In this document: positions 1,242-14,025 of the stretch, one piece after another | Position numbering within the stretch: the first letter of the stretch is position 1 | Layout of the letters: each line of letters opens with the position of its first letter | The notes under the pieces: model-generated | What the model saw: only the letters and a program-made list of their open reading frames with translations | Told to the model about the DNA's origin: nothing | The model's database searches: none | Assembly (NCBI GenBank): GCA_019057795.1 | Contig: JAHLWS010000065.1 | Coordinates: 64,001-128,000, forward strand | From: Promethearchaeota archaeon | GTDB lineage: Archaea; Asgardarchaeota; Lokiarchaeia; Sigyniarchaeales; SOKP01 | Direction of reading: 5' to 3' | DNA length: 64,000 bases | Translations under genes and position numbers: made by a program

Positions 1242-2342
1242 TTAGTCCTCGGTCTGCAAAAAATATCCTAAAATACGCAGCTTATTATTGAAGCGATTTA
1301 ATTCTGTAATAATTCCTTTAAGTCCCTCGTCGTCGTGAACTACTGTTTTATCAAAAAGAATTTTAACGATTCCACTCTTACCGGGAGTTAATTCTTGACC
1401 TTCAATAAATTTGAGAGGAGATAATTTTAAGCCTACTAAACCATAATACTGAACTCCGTCGCCGGGTTTTATTATTCCCCCTTTGGGCGCATAGTATTGA
1501 TTAATAAAAACCTTAGCTTTTATTTCAAGTTCTTGTTTAAAAACTCCAGGACTCACTAAAAGGTTATCTCGACTAACATCATGAGGTGAAATATTCCCTT
1601 TTAAAGCAAGACCGACTCTATCGCCCTCATAGGCAACCTTAAAGGTTCTATCGTGTTTTTGTATGCTTCGAATTATTACTTTTTTTACTGCTGCTTCATA
1701 ACCTACTATTTCGAGCATTTGACCGCTTTGAACCTTTCCTTGCTTTACAATTCCAAGTATCACAGTTCCAATTCCCTTGACTGGAAATACATGATCAATT
1801 AGTATCTTAGTATTTTCTTCGGAATTTGGCTCTTTTTCCAGAAGTTCAATGCCTAGATCTATAATTTTCTTCTTTAACTTTTCGTAATCCTCTTTGATTT
1901 TTAACTCGAATATTTCTGTATTGTTCAAACTGGTGCTCTTTAAAATTGTTTCGAGCTTCTTTCTTATCTCAGGCAGTTTCCACTCCGTTTTCGAATTTAT
2001 CCCAGCTATCACTATTAAAGCTTTAGTTTTAAAGAGTTGGTAAAATAAATCCATCCCAACTAATATTTCTCCAATAGAGGCATTTAACCCCGCATTTAAG
2101 TCTATAACAAGAATATGAATATTAGATATAGTTAGAGTTTGTAAAAGCGGTTTAATTTTTTCTGGATAGTCGATTGGAGTTAACCCACAAAACACTTGAT
2201 TTAGGCTTACATCCAAGCGATTGTAAAATAGAATATCTGACTTTGTCCCAGGGGAACCTAACGCTTGTCCTATTAGATTATTAATATCAAAATTATCCCC
2301 TAAGATTCCCACAATAAAATTTCTTTCAATTGCTTCACTCAT
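1242..2342 (-). CDS. SelB/EF-Tu-like translation factor homologue with degenerate GTPase domain
   Basis: Domain II motif IDHVFPVKGIGTVILG...IRSIQKH...GDRVGLAL; no GxxxxGK[ST] P-loop in the N-terminal domain. Confidence 0.8.
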   Translation of the reverse strand: MSEAIERNFIVGILGDNFDINNLIGQALGSPGTKSDILFYNRLDVSLNQVFCGLTPIDYPEKIKPLLQTLTISNIHILVIDLNAGLNASIGEILVGMDLFYQLFKTKALIVIAGINSKTEWKLPEIRKKLETILKSTSLNNTEIFELKIKEDYEKLKKKIIDLGIELLEKEPNSEENTKILIDHVFPVKGIGTVILGIVKQGKVQSGQMLEIVGYEAAVKKVIIRSIQKHDRTFKVAYEGDRVGLALKGNISPHDVSRDNLLVSPGVFKQELEIKAKVFINQYYAPKGGIIKPGDGVQYYGLVGLKLSPLKFIEGQELTPGKSGIVKILFDKTVVHDDEGLKGIITELNRFNNKLRILGYFLQTED

Positions 2343-2481: not shown

Positions 2482-4002
2482 ATGCCTCGAAATAGTTTAG
2501 TTAATCAAGTTATTTTAATTATTATCGATGATGTTCGAGCATCCCATCTTTTTGATTTAATTAAGCAAAAAAAGCTACCTAATATAGCTCAGCTTGCTGA
2601 GAGTGGAATCTCGTGCCAAAATTGTATTACTTCTTTTCCGAGTATTACATTTCCTTGTTATAGTAATATAGTTATTGGATCATATTCAGGATACTTCTCT
2701 ATAGAAGGAAGTGGTATTCCGATGTATCATTGGGTTGGAAGAACCGACCCACCATCGGAAGGGAAAAGATTTCCTATTATTCGAAATTGTGGGAAGGGAA
2801 GTCATATTAGAAAGTTTAATAGTGATTTCGGACCAAATTGTCAAACTATTTTTGAACAGGCAGGAGAAGGAAATTTTTTAAGCTCACTAAATCTTCTTAA
2901 TCGAGGATCTGTAATGATTCCCCCAATCGAATACACCACTCAATCGATATTAAAGGGAGTTGAAGAAATATATAAAGATCCTAAAAAAATCTTTTCAAAC
3001 AAAGAAGTGCCAAAAGTAACAGTTGCTTATATACCTAAAACAGACGACCTTATGCATAAAAAAGGGTTCTCTCATCCAAAATACATTAATGAAATTATTA
3101 AATGCGATGAATCTATTGGCTTAATAATTAAAATGTTAAAGGAAAAGGGGTATTTTGACTCGACTGCTATTGGAATTATTTCGGATCATGGAAATTATAA
3201 AACAGAAAAATTGTATGACATTGAACCTTATTTTAAAGAAAAAGGTCTAATGCAGTACTTACCTAGAAAAGGAATTGGTGATTTCGATGCTAGTTTTGGT
3301 TCAGTTGGATTTTTTAACTTTCCAGGGAAAGATTGGCATCATCATCCAACTACTAAACAATTAAAAGAATTTATTCCAAGCGGTTCAGGAAAGTCGAAAT
3401 TGAATTTATTTGAGACTTTATGGAAGATTCCAGGCGTGAAATTGATGTACTACCGGGACGACAATAACACGCCTGACAAAGGGATAATATATCTGGAACA
3501 GCGGAACGAGAAATCAGGAAAAATTTCAAAAAACATTATTGAATATGAGGGTCATGGAAAAAATCAACGAACGAAATATATCATTGATGAAAAAGATTTA
3601 TACAAATACGAAGACTACGAAGAATCCGCTGTGCTTTTAGATAATAAGGCTCATAATATTGATGAGTGGTTAGAAGGAACGAATAAAATAGATTTTCCAA
3701 TGATAGTAGACCAAATTCCTCGATATTTTAAAAATCCCCGTTCTTGCGATATTATGATATCCACGATTGGCGAATATGGATTTGGTTATGAACATGGGAT
3801 GTCAATGCCTCATTCTCCATACTCTCACGATATAGGACTTAAAAAGTCGATGACTGTGCCATTCATCATTGGAGGGTCTCTAAACATTCCTTCTACGGAG
3901 CTATCGTATTGTAAAACGACGGATATGGTTCCAACGCTCTTAGATTTATTAGGAGAAAAACCACATTTCAGCGTTGTTGGAAAATCTGTATTTAAGTATT
4001 AA
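2482..4002 (+). CDS. Alkaline phosphatase superfamily (nucleotide pyrophosphatase/phosphodiesterase-like) protein
   Basis: IIIDD, FPSITFP (Thr nucleophile), DDLMH, SDHG and C-terminal SH metal ligands. Confidence 0.85.
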   Translation: MPRNSLVNQVILIIIDDVRASHLFDLIKQKKLPNIAQLAESGISCQNCITSFPSITFPCYSNIVIGSYSGYFSIEGSGIPMYHWVGRTDPPSEGKRFPIIRNCGKGSHIRKFNSDFGPNCQTIFEQAGEGNFLSSLNLLNRGSVMIPPIEYTTQSILKGVEEIYKDPKKIFSNKEVPKVTVAYIPKTDDLMHKKGFSHPKYINEIIKCDESIGLIIKMLKEKGYFDSTAIGIISDHGNYKTEKLYDIEPYFKEKGLMQYLPRKGIGDFDASFGSVGFFNFPGKDWHHHPTTKQLKEFIPSGSGKSKLNLFETLWKIPGVKLMYYRDDNNTPDKGIIYLEQRNEKSGKISKNIIEYEGHGKNQRTKYIIDEKDLYKYEDYEESAVLLDNKAHNIDEWLEGTNKIDFPMIVDQIPRYFKNPRSCDIMISTIGEYGFGYEHGMSMPHSPYSHDIGLKKSMTVPFIIGGSLNIPSTELSYCKTTDMVPTLLDLLGEKPHFSVVGKSVFKY

Positions 4003-4151
4003 CCTTATTAATATTTAATTCCATGAAGACCTGAGCCATTTAAACTAAAGAAATTTACCAAATATATTTTGAAATATAATTTCAAAAAGAAATTAAATAT
4101 TAAGTAAAAATTATTTCAATTAATATTAAATTATAAAACCAAGTAATTAAA

Positions 4152-4205
4152 GTGAAAGCTAATAACATAATTATAGTCCCTGAAACTCATTGGGATCGCG
4201 AATAG
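4152..4205 (+). pseudogene. Orphaned diverged copy of alpha-mannosidase exon 1
   Basis: GTG AAA GCT AAT AAC ATA ATT ATA GTC CCT GAA ACT CAT TGG GAT CGC GAA TAG = VKANNIIIVPETHWDRE*, paralogous to MVRANHIIIVPETHWDRE at 5639-5692 with many synonymous differences. Confidence 0.85.
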
Positions 4206-4207
4206 AA

Positions 4208-5467
4208 CTATTTTTGTTGAGATCGAGAGGTTTTTATATCCCATTCCTCACAGAGTTTATAAAAGGAACCAATGGATACTTTAAATTTTTTAATTAAATG
4301 GGAAATTGGATACTTATCAATTAAACATTGTAGATTCTCCTTATTTACTACTGCTTCTTTTAGGCATGGAATCACATTCATATCTCTCTCATTAAATGTT
4401 CTCCTCTTTCTGGGCATACTGTTTTTATAGTTCCTCATCATTTCATTAAATAATAATGCCCCTAATGATAATCTCCAATGTGATTTAGTGGCAATAATAT
4501 TATCAAAATTACTTATTTTACCTTTCTCATATTGAATTTTAACTTCATATTGAATATTTAATTTCAACCTTATTTGTTCGAGAAATTCTTTAGAGCCACT
4601 TGTTATTCTAGTACTGTTAGCATTGCCATCCCCATCATAATAACCAAGAACCCAGGCCAAAAATAACTTATGATTAATAGGAGTTTTTTTATTAAAAATT
4701 ATAGGAATCGATTTTCTTAAAGACTTTGAACTTGAGAACCCAATATTCATTAAATCTTCAACCATTGGTTTACATCTAAAACGCAAATAAGCCAATTGAT
4801 ATGTTCTCCATTCTTCTTTATTTTTCTTTGTTCTATCTCGTTCTTTAATAAGTATAGGATCAAGATTTAGGGCTTTACAAAATCTTATTATTTGATCTTT
4901 ATCCTTAATTGAAAGCTCCATAGATATCAAATACCAAGGTTTTCCCCGATAATCCATTACTACAGAACCGTCTGCGTATAAAAAACCTAACCAATAAGCT
5001 TTTTCAAGTGTATCTACTTTCCTAAAAAAATCAGCTCTAAGATCATCGCTATATTGCTGATTTGAGTATTCTTTCAAGTTTTTATTTAACTCTTGATATC
5101 TTTTAATAAATAATAAACAATTAATTACTTTATTTCCTAAGCTTTTCTTTAGGTTATTTTGGAATTTTTCTAAATTTTGCTCTGAAAATTTGTAATTTGG
5201 ATTATATCCACGAACTTTCGAGTTGGTGATTCTTTGTTTTAGATCTGATAAATAAGTCGATCCATGTCCTAAAAGTATACTAGCTTTGGGTAAAGGTCCT
5301 AACTCATTTACCAAATCGTCTATTAAATTCAAAGTGCTATAAACACTTTCTTTTTTAACAGTCATAATTTGAATATGGAATTGATCTTTATAAACTGAAT
5401 AACATCCATAATTTTTTCTAATATCGTTTCTAATATTCATTCCAATAAGAATTAGGGCTCCAATCAC
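4208..5467 (-). CDS. Double-motif LAGLIDADG homing endonuclease (free-standing; likely start ATG at 5365)
   Basis: Motifs AYWLGFLYADG and LAWVLGYYDGDG; basic composition. Confidence 0.88.
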   Translation of the reverse strand: MIGALILIGMNIRNDIRKNYGCYSVYKDQFHIQIMTVKKESVYSTLNLIDDLVNELGPLPKASILLGHGSTYLSDLKQRITNSKVRGYNPNYKFSEQNLEKFQNNLKKSLGNKVINCLLFIKRYQELNKNLKEYSNQQYSDDLRADFFRKVDTLEKAYWLGFLYADGSVVMDYRGKPWYLISMELSIKDKDQIIRFCKALNLDPILIKERDRTKKNKEEWRTYQLAYLRFRCKPMVEDLMNIGFSSSKSLRKSIPIIFNKKTPINHKLFLAWVLGYYDGDGNANSTRITSGSKEFLEQIRLKLNIQYEVKIQYEKGKISNFDNIIATKSHWRLSLGALLFNEMMRNYKNSMPRKRRTFNERDMNVIPCLKEAVVNKENLQCLIDKYPISHLIKKFKVSIGSFYKLCEEWDIKTSRSQQK

Positions 5468-5638
5468 GCATTCAAGGTCTTTTATACATAGAAATTAGAA
5501 AACTTATTTAGTTGATATTCACCCTCTTGGGCAGCTTAAATATTGTATTATTCCTCTCTTTTCAGCAAGTAAGCAATATAAAACATCAAAAATTATGAGT
5601 ATTAAACTATGAAAAAGAAAAAAAGATGATAAAAGACT

Positions 5639-8464
5639 ATGGTGAGAGCAAATCATATAATAATTGTTCCTGAGACCCACTGGGACCGTGAAACTTTGTA
5701 TAATTAATATACAAAGCACGATTGGTATCTCCCGTTTCAAGAGTATAGAGCAAAACTAGTTCTCATGATGGATAAGCTCTTGGATATCCTAAGAAGCGAT
5801 CCAGATTATAAAAATTTCACTCTTGATGGACAAACTATTCCGATAGAGGACTATCTTGAAGTCCGACCTGAATTTGAAGATGAGATTAAAAAGTATGTAA
5901 AAGAAAGGCGGCTTTCGATTGGGCCTATGTATATTTTACCAGATGAATTTTTGGTAAGCGGCGAATCTTTGATTAGGAACTTAATAATTGGACACCAAAT
6001 TGCTAAGAGATTTGGAAGGGTTATGAAAGCAGGTTACATCCCTGATCCTTTTGGCCACATTGCTCAATTACCTCAAATACTTCAAGGATTTGAAATCCCT
6101 TCGATTTTATTCTGGCGAGGGTTTGGTAACGAATTCGTAGAAAATAACCTAAACATTGAATTTATTTGGAATTCCCCCGGAGATTCTAATTCTATTTTGG
6201 GAATATTTTTGAAGCAGAGCTACGGTTCGGTTGCTGATCTTAATTTATCAAAAAGAAGCGGAAAATATAAACTGGCGCTTCATAAGATAAAAAGGGTTGT
6301 TTCTGAGTTCGAAAAATTCACAGCTACATCCTATGTTCTTTTGAATAGCGGTTCAGATCATCACGAAGCTCGATCGGAGATTCCTGAAATAGTTAGACAA
6401 TGGAACGAAATGTATCCCGAGAAACTTTTAGAACAAAACGATTTTGAATATTATGTCGATAAAGTATTACATAGTAATCCACAGTTAAAACAGTTTAAAG
6501 GCGAATTAAGAGGTGGAAAGTACGCACATCTACTTTCAGGGGTATTTTCAGCTCGTATGTGGATCAAGCAGAGAAACACGGCAATCGAATATCTGTACGA
6601 AAAATATACGGAACCCTTATCAACAATTATATGGTCTCTCGATAAATATAAGGAATTTAATTACCCTCAAGCTTATATGCTCACAGGTTTGAAATGGCTT
6701 ATCAAAAACCACCCTCACGATAGCATATGTGGCTGTTCTATTGATCAGGTTCACAAAGAAATGGAGACTAGGTTTGATTGGGCGGAGCAAATCGGTAATG
6801 AAGTGTTTAAAAATTCAATATTGTATCTATACAATCTGATTACAGTTGAGGAAGACGAGAAAAAAATTCCGATCGTAGTATTTAATCCTCTTCCTTGGAA
6901 ACGTAAAGATATCGCAAATTTCCACATAATATCCAACACTAAAAAAGCTGGTTTTAAAAATCCAGACGCTTTCAAAATTCTCGACTCCGAAGGAAACGAG
7001 ATCGCATACCAATACGTTCAAATCAGCGAAGAGCCAAGATATAGATTAATTGGATCGGTTAGTTATTATTGCTCGTTTTTAGCCGAGGTTCCTGCTTGTG
7101 GATATAAGTGTTATTATATCGTACCAGGAGAAAAACCCGAAGAACCTGTAGTAAAGAGTAAAAAATTGAAGTTAGGTATAAATAGCTTAGAAAATCAGTT
7201 CTACAAAATCAACATAAGTTTTAAGGGACAAATCGACGTTTTAGATAAGGAAAGTAAAGTTTTGTACGAAAATATTTGTTATTTTGAGGATATAGGAGAT
7301 TGGGGGGATGAATATGACTTTTCGGGGCCATATGAAAATCAAACTGATTTAAAATTCACCTCAGAAGATCTGAATATTCTAGAAATAGCACCGTTTTTAG
7401 ACGGGGTCACCCAAAAAACGATTAGAATAAGAGCAAATCTCAATTTACCTACTTCTTTAACCGAGGATAGATATAGTAGAGACGAATATCTGATTTCAAA
7501 CTTAATCGATATCTATATAACGGTATATAAGGACATTAAACGAGTTGATTTTAAGATTGAATTAGAAAACAATAGTAAAGACCACCGAATACGAGTACTT
7601 TTTCCTTCAAAAATTAAATCTAAAAATGTAGATTCCGATGGTCATTTTTATGTCATTTCGCGAGATGTTGAGATGCCAAAATCTGAGAAATGGGCTCAAC
7701 AACCCGTACCTACTAACCATCAGAAAGATTTTGTCTCTGTTAACGATACATCAAGAACTTTTTCGGTTATAAACAAAGGATTACCCGAATATGAGGCAGT
7801 TATAAATAAAGATGGAACGATTTCGCTAGCTATTACCTTACTGCGGTGTATTGAATGGCTTTCAAGACACGATTTTACCTCGAGAAGAAGTAACGCAGGT
7901 CCGGACCTAAATACTCCCGAAGCTCAATGTCTTGGAAAGCATACTTTCGAACTTTCTCTCGTTATCGAAGGAAACAAACCTAATTGGTTAGATTCGAACG
8001 CTCACATAAAAGGTAAAGAATTTAACAATCCTTTTGAGGTTGTGGTTCCCTCGATAGTTAGAACCTCAATAAGAGCTTCGAATAAAGTCGTTTTAGCCCC
8101 TTTTGGACTAATTTCATATTTTAAACCATCAACTCGTCAACCTTTAAAACCTTATTTACCTACCAAATTAAGCTTCCTTGAAATCGATAACACAAAAATA
8201 ATGCTTAGTGCTTTGAAAAAATCGGAAAAGGGAGAATCTTTAATCGTTAGAGTTTATAACATCTCTTCAACCACTCAAAAAGCAAGGTTAACGTTACACG
8301 AGAAAACTTCCATCAAAAGTGCGGATATTGTAAACTTTTTGGAAGAAAAGCCAGAAAACGAAATTAAGGCGAAAATTGTTTCAAGTAAAGGGAATCATCT
8401 TGATCTAACTCTGGAACCGCACATAATAGTAACGATAAAACTTGAGCTTGATAATAATTATTAA
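5639..8464 (+). CDS. GH38 alpha-mannosidase / mannosylglycerate hydrolase-like, spliced: join(5639..5692,5723..8464), 931 aa
   Basis: Spliced N-terminus PETHWDREWYLPF (Zn-binding HxD motif), FTLDGQ, GYIPDPFGH nucleophile motif, HPHDSICGCS. The ORF-track version (5765 start) lacks the essential HWD motif. Confidence 0.9.
5693..5722 (+). other. 30-nt BHB-type intron in the alpha-mannosidase gene
   Basis: CGTG-AA^A-CTTTGTATA-ATTAA-TATACAAAG-CACG-AT^T: 4-bp central helix, two 3-nt bulges, perfect 9-bp inner stem; contains in-frame TAA; removal gives CGT GAA TGG TAT (REWY). Confidence 0.85.
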
Positions 8465-8613: not shown

Positions 8614-9747
8614 GTGAAAAATTTTGATATTATTGTTATAGGCGCAGGACCAGGAGGTTCTGTTGCAGCTAAAGTAGCCTCTGAAAACGGATATTCGACT
8701 TGTATCATTGAAAAAGAAATGCTTGGTGAGAAAGGAAGATATAAGGCATGTGGAGGAGCTACTGCGTGGGAACTAATAGAAGAAATTGATTACCCAGAAG
8801 AAAAAATTGGTAGGGTAATTGAATCTTTAGAATTGCACCATGTTGATGGAGAAACTTATTCTAAAAAAGGTAAAGGCGCTGTCGTTTGGCGAAGCACTTT
8901 TGATAAGTTTTTAACTGACATGGCTGTCGATAGTGGAGCCTTATTAAAAGAGAAAGAGCTTATGATTAACATTGAAAAAGTTGATGATTTTTACAAAATC
9001 AGTACTAATAAAGATAAATATACTGCAAAATATATAATTGCCGCTGATGGCGTTACTTCACCTACTTTAAAATTGCTAAATTGGCCTTTTTTCAAAAGTG
9101 AAGACTTAATTTTAACTATTACTAAAGAGATGAAAACTACTAAGTCCAATATAGATAAAGTTCTTGGACATGATACAGTTCATTTGTTTTTTGGTATTGA
9201 AAGCCTTATTCGTGTTGGTTATGCTTGGTTGTTTCCAAAAACTGAGAGGATTACAGTAGGATGGGGTAATCAAATTAATTTAGTAAAAAATTCAAGAGAA
9301 GAATTTAAAAAATTTCTAAAGCTCCCACTTGTTAAACTAGCGTTAAACAATTCAACGATGGAAACCTTTAAACCTCATCTAATCCCAGTAGGACTTAGAT
9401 CGAAGCTTTATGAGGAGAATCTGTTTGCTGTGGGTGATTCAGGGGGAATCGTTGATCCTATAAGCGGAAAGGGAATTCCCTATGCCATGATGTCTGGTCA
9501 GTTTGCTATTGAAACTATTAAAATGTGCGAAGAAAAAGATAGAATGGATAGGTTAGGAAGTTATTATGAAAGATCTTTAGATAGAAAGTTTTTAAAAATA
9601 TTAAAGGCAAAACGGATTTTAAGAGACACCATTTTTCAAAGTGATGAAAATTTGAAGAAATTCTTATCGTTGTGGGAAAACCATCGTAGTTCAGAAATTG
9701 CCATGAAAAATTTAATGGATCAAGTGAGTCTATATGAAATTTACTGA
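8614..9747 (+). CDS. Geranylgeranyl reductase family FAD-dependent oxidoreductase
   Basis: GAGPGG Rossmann motif, ACGG, AADG, YAWLFPK, VGDSGG...PISGKGIPYAM. Confidence 0.88.
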   Translation: MKNFDIIVIGAGPGGSVAAKVASENGYSTCIIEKEMLGEKGRYKACGGATAWELIEEIDYPEEKIGRVIESLELHHVDGETYSKKGKGAVVWRSTFDKFLTDMAVDSGALLKEKELMINIEKVDDFYKISTNKDKYTAKYIIAADGVTSPTLKLLNWPFFKSEDLILTITKEMKTTKSNIDKVLGHDTVHLFFGIESLIRVGYAWLFPKTERITVGWGNQINLVKNSREEFKKFLKLPLVKLALNNSTMETFKPHLIPVGLRSKLYEENLFAVGDSGGIVDPISGKGIPYAMMSGQFAIETIKMCEEKDRMDRLGSYYERSLDRKFLKILKAKRILRDTIFQSDENLKKFLSLWENHRSSEIAMKNLMDQVSLYEIY

Positions 9748-10801
9748 ATATTTGAGTTTTTATAAACCTAAGATAAACGATGCAATAGCATTAATCTATA
9801 ATAGACAATTAAAAGAAGTAAAAAATTCGTTCTTAAAAGTCTATTATTCAGAATTACGCGACTATTTTTTAACGGGAGGAAAGAGAATCCGTCCTTTGCT
9901 TTGTATCGCTACTTATAACGCTTTTAGTGGAAAACAAAATGACGACATTATCTTTCCAAGCGTTGGTGTCGAATTTCTACATAACGCTACTTTAGTCCAC
10001 GATGACATTATTGATAAGGATAATTTTAGACGAGGAAAACCCGCGTTTCATTATAGATTTAGGCAATTTCACATAGAAAATAGCCTTAAAAAAATATCAG
10101 CTGAAGATTATGGTAATTCGATAGGCATTATTGGGGGAGATTCCGCATTTTTTCTAGGTCTTGAAGCTTTTTTTTTTAACAATTTTGATAATAACTTTAA
10201 TCTCAGAGCAATTCAATATTACGAACATGCTTTTAGAGAAATAGTAAATGGAGTTTTGATTGAAATTGATATGGTAAACAAGAAAAATCTAAAAATGGAA
10301 GATTATATTCATATGGTTTCTCTTAAAACGGGAGCTTTACTAGAAAAATCAATATTAATCGGTGCTAATTACGCTAAAGTGGAAGAAAAATATAAGTCAT
10401 ATTTATCGATTTATGGAAAAAACTTAGGAATTATATTCCAGATAATAGACGATATTTTAGGGACCTTTGGTGACGAAACAACAACGGGAAAACCAATAGA
10501 CGGAGATATTAGAGAATCTAAAAAGACATGTTTATTGATAGAAGCCAATAATATGTTAAAAGGAAACGAAAAAATCAGACTCAATGAATTAATCGAAAGC
10601 ATTAATATGACTCAAGATGAAGTTCAAGAAGTAAGAGAATTGTTTCTTAAAGCAGAAGTCATTAATCATAGTAAAAAGCTAGCAGAGACTTATTATAAAG
10701 AAGCTCAAATTGCCCTTGAAAAATTAAAGCCAGTAATTCACAATTCAGAGTTAGAGTTTTACGAAAACCTATTAAAATTTGTATTAGAAAGAAAATTTTA
10801 A
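9734..10801 (+). CDS. Geranylgeranyl diphosphate synthase (trans-polyprenyl synthase)
   Basis: GGKRIRP, LVHDDIID...RRGKP, KTG, FQIIDDILG, DIRESKKT. Confidence 0.92.
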   Translation: MKFTEYLSFYKPKINDAIALIYNRQLKEVKNSFLKVYYSELRDYFLTGGKRIRPLLCIATYNAFSGKQNDDIIFPSVGVEFLHNATLVHDDIIDKDNFRRGKPAFHYRFRQFHIENSLKKISAEDYGNSIGIIGGDSAFFLGLEAFFFNNFDNNFNLRAIQYYEHAFREIVNGVLIEIDMVNKKNLKMEDYIHMVSLKTGALLEKSILIGANYAKVEEKYKSYLSIYGKNLGIIFQIIDDILGTFGDETTTGKPIDGDIRESKKTCLLIEANNMLKGNEKIRLNELIESINMTQDEVQEVRELFLKAEVINHSKKLAETYYKEAQIALEKLKPVIHNSELEFYENLLKFVLERKF

Positions 10802-13407: not shown

Positions 13408-14025
13408 TTAATCAGTAACCTCAGATTCACTAAGTTGTTTAATTAATATCGGTATAGCTTCATCAATCGTTTCTTTAACTTTAGCACCTAAACATACTAT
13501 TTTTCCTGAAGAAAAAATTAAAAAAACTACCTTTGGCTCCTGCATTTTGTAAATTGCTGCGGGAAATACTTCAGGTTCGTACATAACATTGTCCATCATA
13601 ATAGTTAACATATTCAAATCAACATTCATATTCAAACTACTAGTTGCTACAATATTTTGAATGATAATTTTTGGATTTTTTATTTTGAATCCAATGTTTT
13701 GTATCTTTTCAATCGCTTGTTGAGCTGCTAAGTTAGCATCTGTGGTTTTTTTAAGACCAGTAATTACCATTTTACCCGAAGAAAAAATTAATAAAGTAGC
13801 ATGTGGATTTTCAAGTCTCATAATAAGCCCTGGAAAACGATCAGGATTATATTCCACATTGGAGGTCCCTTGAATTATTTGATTTAAATCAAGCGCACAT
13901 TCAATTTCGGTAATAACTGTAGCTACAACATTTACAACTTTATATGAGATTTCAAGCTTATCACCGCGATGATTACTCCCCAAATCTCCAATTGTAAGCT
14001 TATCCTCAAGGTTTTCTTCGCTAAT
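13408..14025 (-). CDS. tbp: TATA-box binding protein (probable ATT start at 14025; ORF track starts at TTG 13983)
   Basis: Two repeats NVVAT...YNPDRFPG...LIFSSGKMVITG and NIVAT...YEPEVFP...LIFSSGKIVCLGAK; GAGGAG 7 nt upstream of in-frame ATT. Confidence 0.93.
   Translation of the reverse strand: MSEENLEDKLTIGDLGSNHRGDKLEISYKVVNVVATVITEIECALDLNQIIQGTSNVEYNPDRFPGLIMRLENPHATLLIFSSGKMVITGLKKTTDANLAAQQAIEKIQNIGFKIKNPKIIIQNIVATSSLNMNVDLNMLTIMMDNVMYEPEVFPAAIYKMQEPKVVFLIFSSGKIVCLGAKVKETIDEAIPILIKQLSESEVTD

Follow-up and report, generated by a model that had tools for sequence, protein, structure and literature searches.

A putative homing cassette with a free-standing LAGLIDADG endonuclease, a foreign exon 1 and a predicted BHB mini-intron in a GH38 gene of an Asgard archaeon

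The locus described here lies in a window of 64,000 nt, the whole stretch of DNA analyzed, taken from a Promethearchaeota archaeon (Asgardarchaeota; Lokiarchaeia; Sigyniarchaeales; SOKP01; assembly GCA_019057795.1, contig JAHLWS010000065.1, positions 64,001-128,000 of the forward strand). All coordinates are positions in this window, and the source genome is labeled G000. An insertion of 1.52 kb (about 4203-5722) sits at the RE/W codons of the conserved HWDREWY motif in a gene for a GH38 alpha-mannosidase. Upstream on the plus strand are a type I phosphodiesterase/sulfatase-like host gene (2482-4002, PF01663), which lies outside the cassette, immediately precedes GH38 in most empty alleles and serves as a synteny marker, and the native intergenic and promoter region of GH38 (4003-4151), which is of the host type and aligns closely with the empty alleles G026 and G064. 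There follow, again on the plus strand, an orphan native exon 1 of 17 codons ending in HWDRE (4152-4202), termed here the stub, and a left junction of TAG plus 2 nt (4203-4207). A free-standing double-motif LAGLIDADG endonuclease gene (4208-5365, PF14528) occupies the minus strand, and a cassette-borne spacer (5366-5638) presumably holds promoters that drive the endonuclease and the host gene divergently. The plus strand then resumes with a replacement exon 1 (5639-5692), a 30-nt intron with an in-frame TAA (5693-5722) and exon 2 (5723-8464; PF01074, PF09261, PF07748, PF17677), the product of which is 95-97% identical in amino acids to that of close relatives. A preliminary description of this DNA had recognized the elements of the insertion at these positions, and re-reading the sequence agrees with it, also in that the old 5′ end stops exactly at the codon of the intron site and that the endonuclease stop codon (4208-4210, minus strand) lies 2 nt from the TAG at 4203-4205.

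The stub reads VKANNIIIVPETHWDRE before its TAG (4203-4205), while the working exon 1 reads MVRANHIIIVPETHWDRE. By alignment the stub is shown to be the recipient's native gene start, and empty alleles with a stub-like 5′ end joined straight to exon 2, as the preliminary description had anticipated, occur in G064 (51/51 nt identical) and G026 (50/51). The left junction is TAGAA in G000, L121 and L108, and TGGAA in L122 and L140. Because sister cassettes have TGG there, the TAG is probably a decayed Trp codon, and the left junction is therefore placed at 4202-4205. Exon 1 had been taken for a synonymous recoding of the stub, but the two differ at 12 of 51 nt and two of the changes are non-synonymous (K>R, N>H). 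Since the working exon matches its own stub at only 39/51 nt versus 96% for the working exon of the distant host L140, the unit appears, as had been proposed, to bring its own exon, which judging from these identities is better termed foreign and donor-derived than recoded. The duplication of exon 1 is not due to chance: it reaches a protein-diagonal score of 75, whereas 34 other LAGLIDADG loci stay at or below 43, and the only other high scores in that comparison (57 and 58) are gene-end duplications too. This diagonal scan replaced a repeat search, which missed the diverged exon pair, and a tblastx self-search, which missed the positive control. A sigma-70 promoter scan, with a model ill-suited to archaea, gave 10 matches versus 11.2 in shuffles and thus no excess.

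Fold geometry and the comparison of alleles point to 5693-5722 as a BHB-type pre-mRNA intron with predicted splicing. A central helix of 4 bp (5687-5690/5717-5720) is flanked by bulges of 3 nt each (5691-5693 and 5721-5723), and the intron itself forms a stem of 9 bp (5694-5702/5708-5716). Cuts after the second base of each bulge fall exactly at RE/W and restore HWDREWY, and excision of the 30 nt yields a stop-free GH38 protein of 931 aa. The central helix is paired in 15/15 distinct alleles, the stem shows compensatory changes, and an in-frame stop codon lies within the intron in 17/17. The outer exon helix of the motif is imperfect and interrupted, and the minimum-energy fold keeps the 9-bp stem while replacing the CGUG/CACG helix by another register. 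Two genes with an EndA domain (PF01974) are present in the G000 genome, at C69:74212-74436 and C74:72339-72587, and 19 empty alleles in the genus provide intron-free orthologues. One could also read the whole of 4203-5722, from stub to exon 2, as a single giant BHB intron similar to the archaeal rRNA introns that encode endonucleases, given that the end of the stub falls on the right codon and that 3 of 4 helix pairs are possible in G000. This is highly improbable, as the 10 stub alleles give only 2-3 of 4 helix pairs and 1-4 of 8 inner stem pairs, the stubs of other alleles are degenerate with three of them broken (W>R, and two stops, W>stop and R>stop), and the stretch includes an antisense ORF and a complete second exon under selection. 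The related suspicion that the duplication is an assembly artefact is excluded by the same layout in independent assemblies from many samples.

The longest ORF of the endonuclease starts at GTG 5467 (419 aa), but ATG 5365 (385 aa) is the probable start, judging from the starts of homologues. Both catalytic Asp residues are retained, D130 in LGFLYADG (4970-4972, minus strand) and D244 in LGYYDGDG (4628-4630, minus strand), each at least 90% conserved among 71 homologues, and dN/dS of 0.23-0.42 indicates purifying selection. The AlphaFold2 model (pLDDT 92.5) has two alpha-beta-beta-alpha-beta-beta-alpha domains like those of solved meganucleases, and bears additional N- and C-terminal helical domains. 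Its top Foldseek matches are all LAGLIDADG enzymes (I-AniI, bI3, I-SceI, I-DmoI, I-Tsp061I; lowest E 9.6e-07, highest TMt 0.64). Motifs, fold and allele pattern thus suggest a monomeric (double-motif) LAGLIDADG homing endonuclease with predicted cleavage activity. The GH38 cassettes occupy one fixed conserved site and have spread horizontally, leaving empty, full and decayed alleles; the broken endonucleases in L123, L140 and L142 agree with a homing life cycle. In viral contigs, the homologues among the 80 best matches are all distant, none exceeding 38% identity, and no viral vector for the cassette was seen there.

That a unit of about 1.5 kb invaded the HWDRE/W site, as first proposed, is upheld by reciprocal identity, by borders at the intron site and by horizontal transfer. 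Compared with the distant host L140, the G000 cassette is 87-96% identical and the flanks 59-75%, whereas against the close host L130 the stub and exon 2 are 93-100% identical and the cassette 63-77%; the spacer alone is 90% identical to the L140 cassette and 66% to that of L130. Synonymous divergence follows the same pattern, with dS of 1.05 for the endonuclease and 0.09 for the host gene between G000 and L130, versus 0.24 and 2.3, respectively, between L130 and L119. The host and endonuclease trees conflict, for host clades are rejected by AU tests when imposed on the endonuclease tree (p 3.8e-104, 2.7e-06), as are endonuclease clades when imposed on the host tree (p 1.1e-4, 1e-7, 3.8e-6). 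Because a distant host shares the cassette and not the flanks, and a near-identical host has a different cassette, endonuclease, spacer, new exon 1 and intron are shown, at the level of these comparisons, to move between species together. In L108, nt 31-60 of exon 2 are 73% identical, against 93-94% beyond, and carry foreign polymorphisms, so that this tract resembles a co-conversion tract.

Horizontal transfer might also be passive, by gene conversion or illegitimate recombination at the motif of highest homology, with the LAGLIDADG protein acting as a regulator or maturase or cutting elsewhere. HWDREWY is the most conserved DNA of the region and the upstream gene also shows interspecies recombination (in G030), but at least three different cassette lineages have entered one tight host clade (G000/L121, L108 and L130), each host would carry a dead stub and 1.5 kb of extra DNA with no evident benefit, and the protein has the catalytic residues and fold of meganucleases. 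We therefore regard passive transfer as very unlikely.

The expected co-occurrence of endonuclease and intron is borne out in all 13 endonuclease alleles whose site can be read, these alleles not being independent and those from metagenomes having been chosen via the endonuclease. The preliminary description had named an unlinked endonuclease elsewhere in relatives as evidence against its proposal; the subfamily lies head-to-head with GH38 wherever the flank is visible. A stub accompanies 10 of the 13. It is not obligatory, since G004, G001 and G010 have endonuclease and intron but neither stub nor C-terminal domain. Two further alleles, G005 and G009, hold an intron only, in which a native 5′ end is combined with a cassette-type intron. 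Introns cluster by cassette lineage, and that of G005 is 1 nt away from four introns of lineage B, while that of G009 differs by 2 nt from lineage-A introns and by 5 nt from the G005 intron. Close relatives thus preserve the states empty, endonuclease with intron and stub, endonuclease with intron, intron only, and dead endonuclease.

We consider it likely that 4203-5722 is a homing cassette, and its steps of cleavage, immunity, splicing and promoter supply can be envisaged as follows. The enzyme would cut the intron-free HWDRE/WY site no more than about 10 bp from the junction; stub ends range from -6 to +6 nt around RE/W, which is weak evidence for the cut position because one ancestral event may underlie them. 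In repair off a cassette-bearing copy, the right arm would then be joined to exon 2 and the left one to the donor stub, which probably doubles as the left homology arm. The cassette would thus act like a mobile intron, with a 3′ end that restores the start of the gene and its promoter. In the working copy the 30-nt intron would interrupt the recognition site and confer immunity, and the host tRNA splicing endonuclease would take it out of the mRNA. Intron-only alleles may have lost the endonuclease via recombination between the two copies of exon 1, or may stem from repair using the donor's working exon 1; either route would leave an endonuclease-free mRNA intron in a new lineage.

The part given to the intron can be questioned, as it might be a mere passenger already present in the donor exon, with homing that replaces the 5′ gene end and immunity that comes from the foreign bases of exon 1. 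Related enzymes indeed replace 3′ gene ends intron-free, in G026 at a YjbQ-like gene whose native tail is left stranded and apparently in G011 at a P-type ATPase gene. The intron is therefore not a general requirement of the enzyme family, and foreign sequence alone can plausibly confer immunity. The last 9 nt of exon 1 are also invariantly GAC CGT GAA in 15/15 intron alleles versus GAT CGC GAR in the recipient clade, but the empty alleles G035 and G016 share GAC CGT GAA, and LAGLIDADG enzymes often tolerate third-position changes. Moreover, the intron lies exactly at the junction, where a 30-bp insert would disrupt any site of 18-24 bp, and it is retained in all 13 cassettes across dS >1. We judge a passenger intron unlikely, and favor the cassette in which the intron itself protects the site.

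In the literature on archaeal and Asgard mRNA introns and LAGLIDADG genes, we found no description of this cassette arrangement, which combines phage collaborative homing with the gene-end replacement of fungal mitochondria. Collaborative homing is represented by F-CphI and the psbA group I intron, by T3/T7-like phages and by the ICP1 terminase HEG (PMC10448857, PMC2988022). Shared with it are an intron that lacks an ORF and has a free-standing endonuclease next to it, a predicted cut at the insertion site and joint acquisition; here, however, a 30-nt BHB intron with predicted splicing by the host takes the place of a self-splicing group I intron, and the cassette has a LAGLIDADG enzyme with predicted cleavage, resides in an archaeal chromosome and brings a new 5′ gene end while the old one is stranded. 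In fungal mitochondria, endonuclease ORFs come with duplicated C-terminal gene segments (Allomyces atp6; Glomus atp6, atp9, cox2, nad3; PMC3630166). There too a LAGLIDADG ORF separates a native gene end, near-identical to that of relatives, from a foreign, horizontally acquired working copy, but the archaeal cassette replaces the 5′ end, presumably along with the promoter, instead of the 3′ end, has its ORF antisense and carries an intron. The rRNA BHB introns of I-DmoI and I-Tsp061I likewise pair a double-motif LAGLIDADG fold with a BHB intron, whereas here a protein gene is targeted and the enzyme is encoded on the opposite strand, external to the intron. In Caldiarchaeum subterraneum, a 1.87-kb insertion in tRNA-Thr similarly brings a new 5′ gene part and an extra intron and leaves a 5′ fragment upstream, but it concerns a tRNA gene and not homing, its ORF having been read as a putative recombinase and its mechanism as plasmid integration (PMC3293823).

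Experimental knowledge of archaeal mRNA introns comes essentially from cbf5 of Crenarchaeota alone, with a BHB intron of 16-44 nt cut by EndA between bulge bases 2 and 3, too short for a nuclease ORF and of an origin called unclear (PMC2738675). The GH38 intron is equally tiny, of BHB type, in a protein gene and patchily distributed; unlike in cbf5, an endonuclease is adjacent and co-transferred, and splicing is predicted. It is possible, though we would not call it probable, that free-standing LAGLIDADG cassettes, each bringing a replacement gene end with an immunizing BHB intron and spreading between species, are a main seeding engine of tRNA-type mini-introns in Asgard protein-coding genes, the enzyme later being deleted between the duplicated exons to leave an apparently orphan intron. 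About 36 more distant LAGLIDADG loci were scanned without revealing a general association with a neighboring BHB intron, and this genome-wide claim is therefore not established. At the GH38 locus itself, the cassette accounts for the truncated gene calls that GH38 has in these genomes, and it draws attention to an uncharacterized and diverse meganuclease family. With one enzyme and one site of about 20 bp named, DNA-level spread of BHB introns in the Asgard archaea, the closest prokaryotic relatives of eukaryotes, becomes testable by a simple assay in vitro, and the locus suggests a testable way in which tiny mRNA introns of archaea may spread.

The cassette is found in a genome of Lokiarchaeia (Promethearchaeota), where it lies between a phosphodiesterase gene (2482-4002) and the body of a GH38 alpha-mannosidase gene at the downstream end of the array. 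A stub of 17 codons (4152-4202) ends in HWDRE and runs into TAG, and 2 nt past this TAG comes the stop codon of an antisense LAGLIDADG ORF (4208-5365, with the ATG at 5365 as probable start). A spacer then leads to the working exon 1 of 18 codons (5639-5692). Between this exon and exon 2 lies an insert of 30 nt (5693-5722) that contains an in-frame stop; without the insert the GH38 frame is open over 931 aa and HWDREWY is restored. The preliminary description had placed these elements in just this order, and all of them are present, but it also took the working exon 1 for a synonymous recoding, which is not purely the case since stub and working exon share 39/51 nt and 15/17 residues. Neighbouring genes encode a protein with an EF-Tu domain 2 match (1242-2342, minus strand), geranylgeranyl-reductase-like and prenyltransferase-like proteins (8614-10801, plus strand) and a TATA-binding-protein-like ORF (13408-13983, minus strand). 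A second, shorter homologue of the GH38 N-terminal domain lies elsewhere in the genome (G000:C2:11328-12191; 46% identity, 321-aa open frame).

The empty alleles that had been proposed as a check were found in G064 and G026, the nearest relatives that lack the intron (95-97% aa identity). Here the stub sequence joins exon 2 directly (51/51 and 50/51 identical, respectively) and the upstream region is the same, thus the stub is the native gene start and the segment from about 4203 to 5722 was inserted at RE/W, the insertion codons of HWDREWY. The site could be read in 27 genomes of the genus, whose relatedness makes the counts a pattern rather than a statistical test: 19 are empty, four carry endonuclease and intron (G000, G004, G001, G010), and four carry just the intron (G005, G009, G019, G023). 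No genome among the 27 has an endonuclease but no intron. In some relatives the slot between phosphodiesterase and GH38 that houses the endonuclease holds unrelated genes, namely a 287-290 aa membrane protein in G005 (L066) and G003 (L076) and an antisense membrane protein in G035 (L072).

The insert and its exon edges fold into a helix of 4 bp (CGUG/CACG), a pair of 3-nt bulges and a stem of 9 bp, and the EndA rule of cutting both bulges after the second base (PMC2738675) leads exactly to RE/W. Each of the 15 distinct intron alleles preserves all four pairs of the helix, the inner stem varies by compensatory changes (e.g., TA>CG in four alleles, AT>GC/TA in four), and an in-frame stop occurs in every one of these introns as well as in two later alleles. 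Intron alleles all share the same nine bases at the end of the exon, compared with 17 different 9-mers among 26 empty alleles. The BHB structure is conserved, with the caveat that the minimum-energy fold adopts a different outer register. Two tRNA-splicing-endonuclease genes are present in the genome.

A protein search delimited a distinct endonuclease group (56-97% identity, falling to ~40% outside it), and every member with a visible GH38-side flank is head-to-head with GH38, so that this subfamily is tied to the GH38 site. Nine further metagenome alleles carry the 30-nt intron in the working gene and a stub past the endonuclease stop, bringing the totals to an intron in 13/13 endonuclease alleles, the co-occurrence that was to be checked, and a stub in 10/13. 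Stubs resemble the 5′ end of their own host and end −6 to +6 nt from RE/W. Three of them are broken. The reading of 4203-5722 as one giant intron failed. The three stub-less alleles also lack the C-terminal domain, and in G004 the native start was replaced wholesale. Because both motif aspartates are kept, dN/dS is 0.23-0.42 (15 pairs) and a confident structure model (pLDDT 92.5) has only meganucleases as best matches, including I-AniI, I-SceI, I-DmoI and I-Tsp061I, the endonuclease looks active. The truncation of some copies (L123, L140, L142) is what one would expect after the available targets are exhausted. In the cassette-bearing L115 (GCA_048886345.1) the GH38 call covers no more than 118 aa of the C-terminal part; either breakage of the gene or a faulty call may be the cause.

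Between G000 and the distant host L140, identity is 87-96% from 4203 to 5722 and 87% in the first 30 nt of exon 2, but only 59-75% across the left flank and 67-73% further into exon 2. L130 displays the reverse pattern, with 93-100% in stub and exon 2 and 63-77% inside the cassette. Likewise, dS is 0.24 for the endonuclease versus 2.3 for the host gene between L130 and L119, and 1.05 versus 0.09 between G000 and L130. In the midpoint-rooted host tree, cassette and empty alleles are interspersed, at least three cassette lineages occur within one tight host clade, and in AU tests each tree rejects the clades of the other (p 1e-4 to 4e-104), where the host sequence is short in L130 and L140 and groups were picked after earlier trees were seen. 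The cassette parts were thus co-transferred, and exon 1 is foreign. Foreign bases at exon-2 nt 31-60 in L108 look like a co-conversion tract. Separately, the phosphodiesterase of G030 (L069) is 91% identical to that of G000 and its GH38 only 82%, which suggests another interspecies recombination at the locus.

We propose that the endonuclease would cut near RE/W and that exon 2 and the donor stub would act as homology arms in repair; the cassette would bring its promoter, and the intron would confer immunity and be removed from the RNA by EndA splicing. The intron-only G005 and G009 have the native upstream region and exon 1 start, with intron-type codons only near the junction; the G005 intron is 1 nt off four lineage-B cassette introns, and that of G009 is 2 nt off lineage-A introns and 5 nt off G005's. 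Both alleles are the remnant expected from endonuclease deletion between exon copies or from intron-only capture in repair. With only 30 nt to compare, the assignment is suggestive rather than proof.

The main rival holds the intron to be a mere passenger, and is somewhat strengthened by sister enzymes whose 3′ gene-end replacements involve no intron. In G026 a related LAGLIDADG gene lies behind a YjbQ-like gene (L057, G026:C384, about 1040-1104 and 2645-2710, reverse strand) whose working tail is foreign, while the stranded one corresponds to the native tail found in G000, G064 and G020. A similar picture is seen at a heavy-metal P-type ATPase gene in G011, probably another 3′ end replacement (L049, G011:C123, about 1200-1290 and 2765-2840, reverse strand), with a LAGLIDADG gene behind it and the last ATPase residues repeated beyond. 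Against a passenger, all cassettes retain the intron and it sits on the junction. A LAGLIDADG gene also adjoins the YjbQ-like gene in G010, and L049 is followed closely by a tRNA-like gene with an intron.

Other LAGLIDADG genes occur in the source genome. On G000:C78 a 566-aa ORF (128065-129762, minus strand) lies 2 kb downstream, with one gene between, of a 32-nt BHB-like insert (about 126078-126109) within the KRCG/ICGSD motif of a zinc-dependent alcohol-dehydrogenase-like gene. Two broken copies (G000:C43, 20329-20700 and 23499-24151) surround a glutaredoxin/flavoprotein/HTH/ferredoxin cluster, and a 724-aa ORF (G000:C54, 9200-11371) has a long N-terminal extension; many homologues in the genus show open frames of 450-1350 aa. 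A scan of more distant LAGLIDADG loci saw no general pairing with introns, hence this route of spread is documented for the GH38 site only.

The cassette would work in the manner of phage collaborative homing (PMC10448857, PMC2988022) together with fungal-mitochondrial gene-end replacement (PMC3630166), the scheme here applying to a cbf5-like BHB mRNA intron. An insertion in Caldiarchaeum tRNA-Thr (PMC3293823) has a similar layout, however it was read as plasmid integration, and a recent preprint left open how Asgard tRNA introns arrive. Our literature search, which reached few subscription journals, found no description of this arrangement for archaeal protein genes. The cassette is real, has good support from comparative genomics, combines known parts in a new way and lends itself to direct testing.
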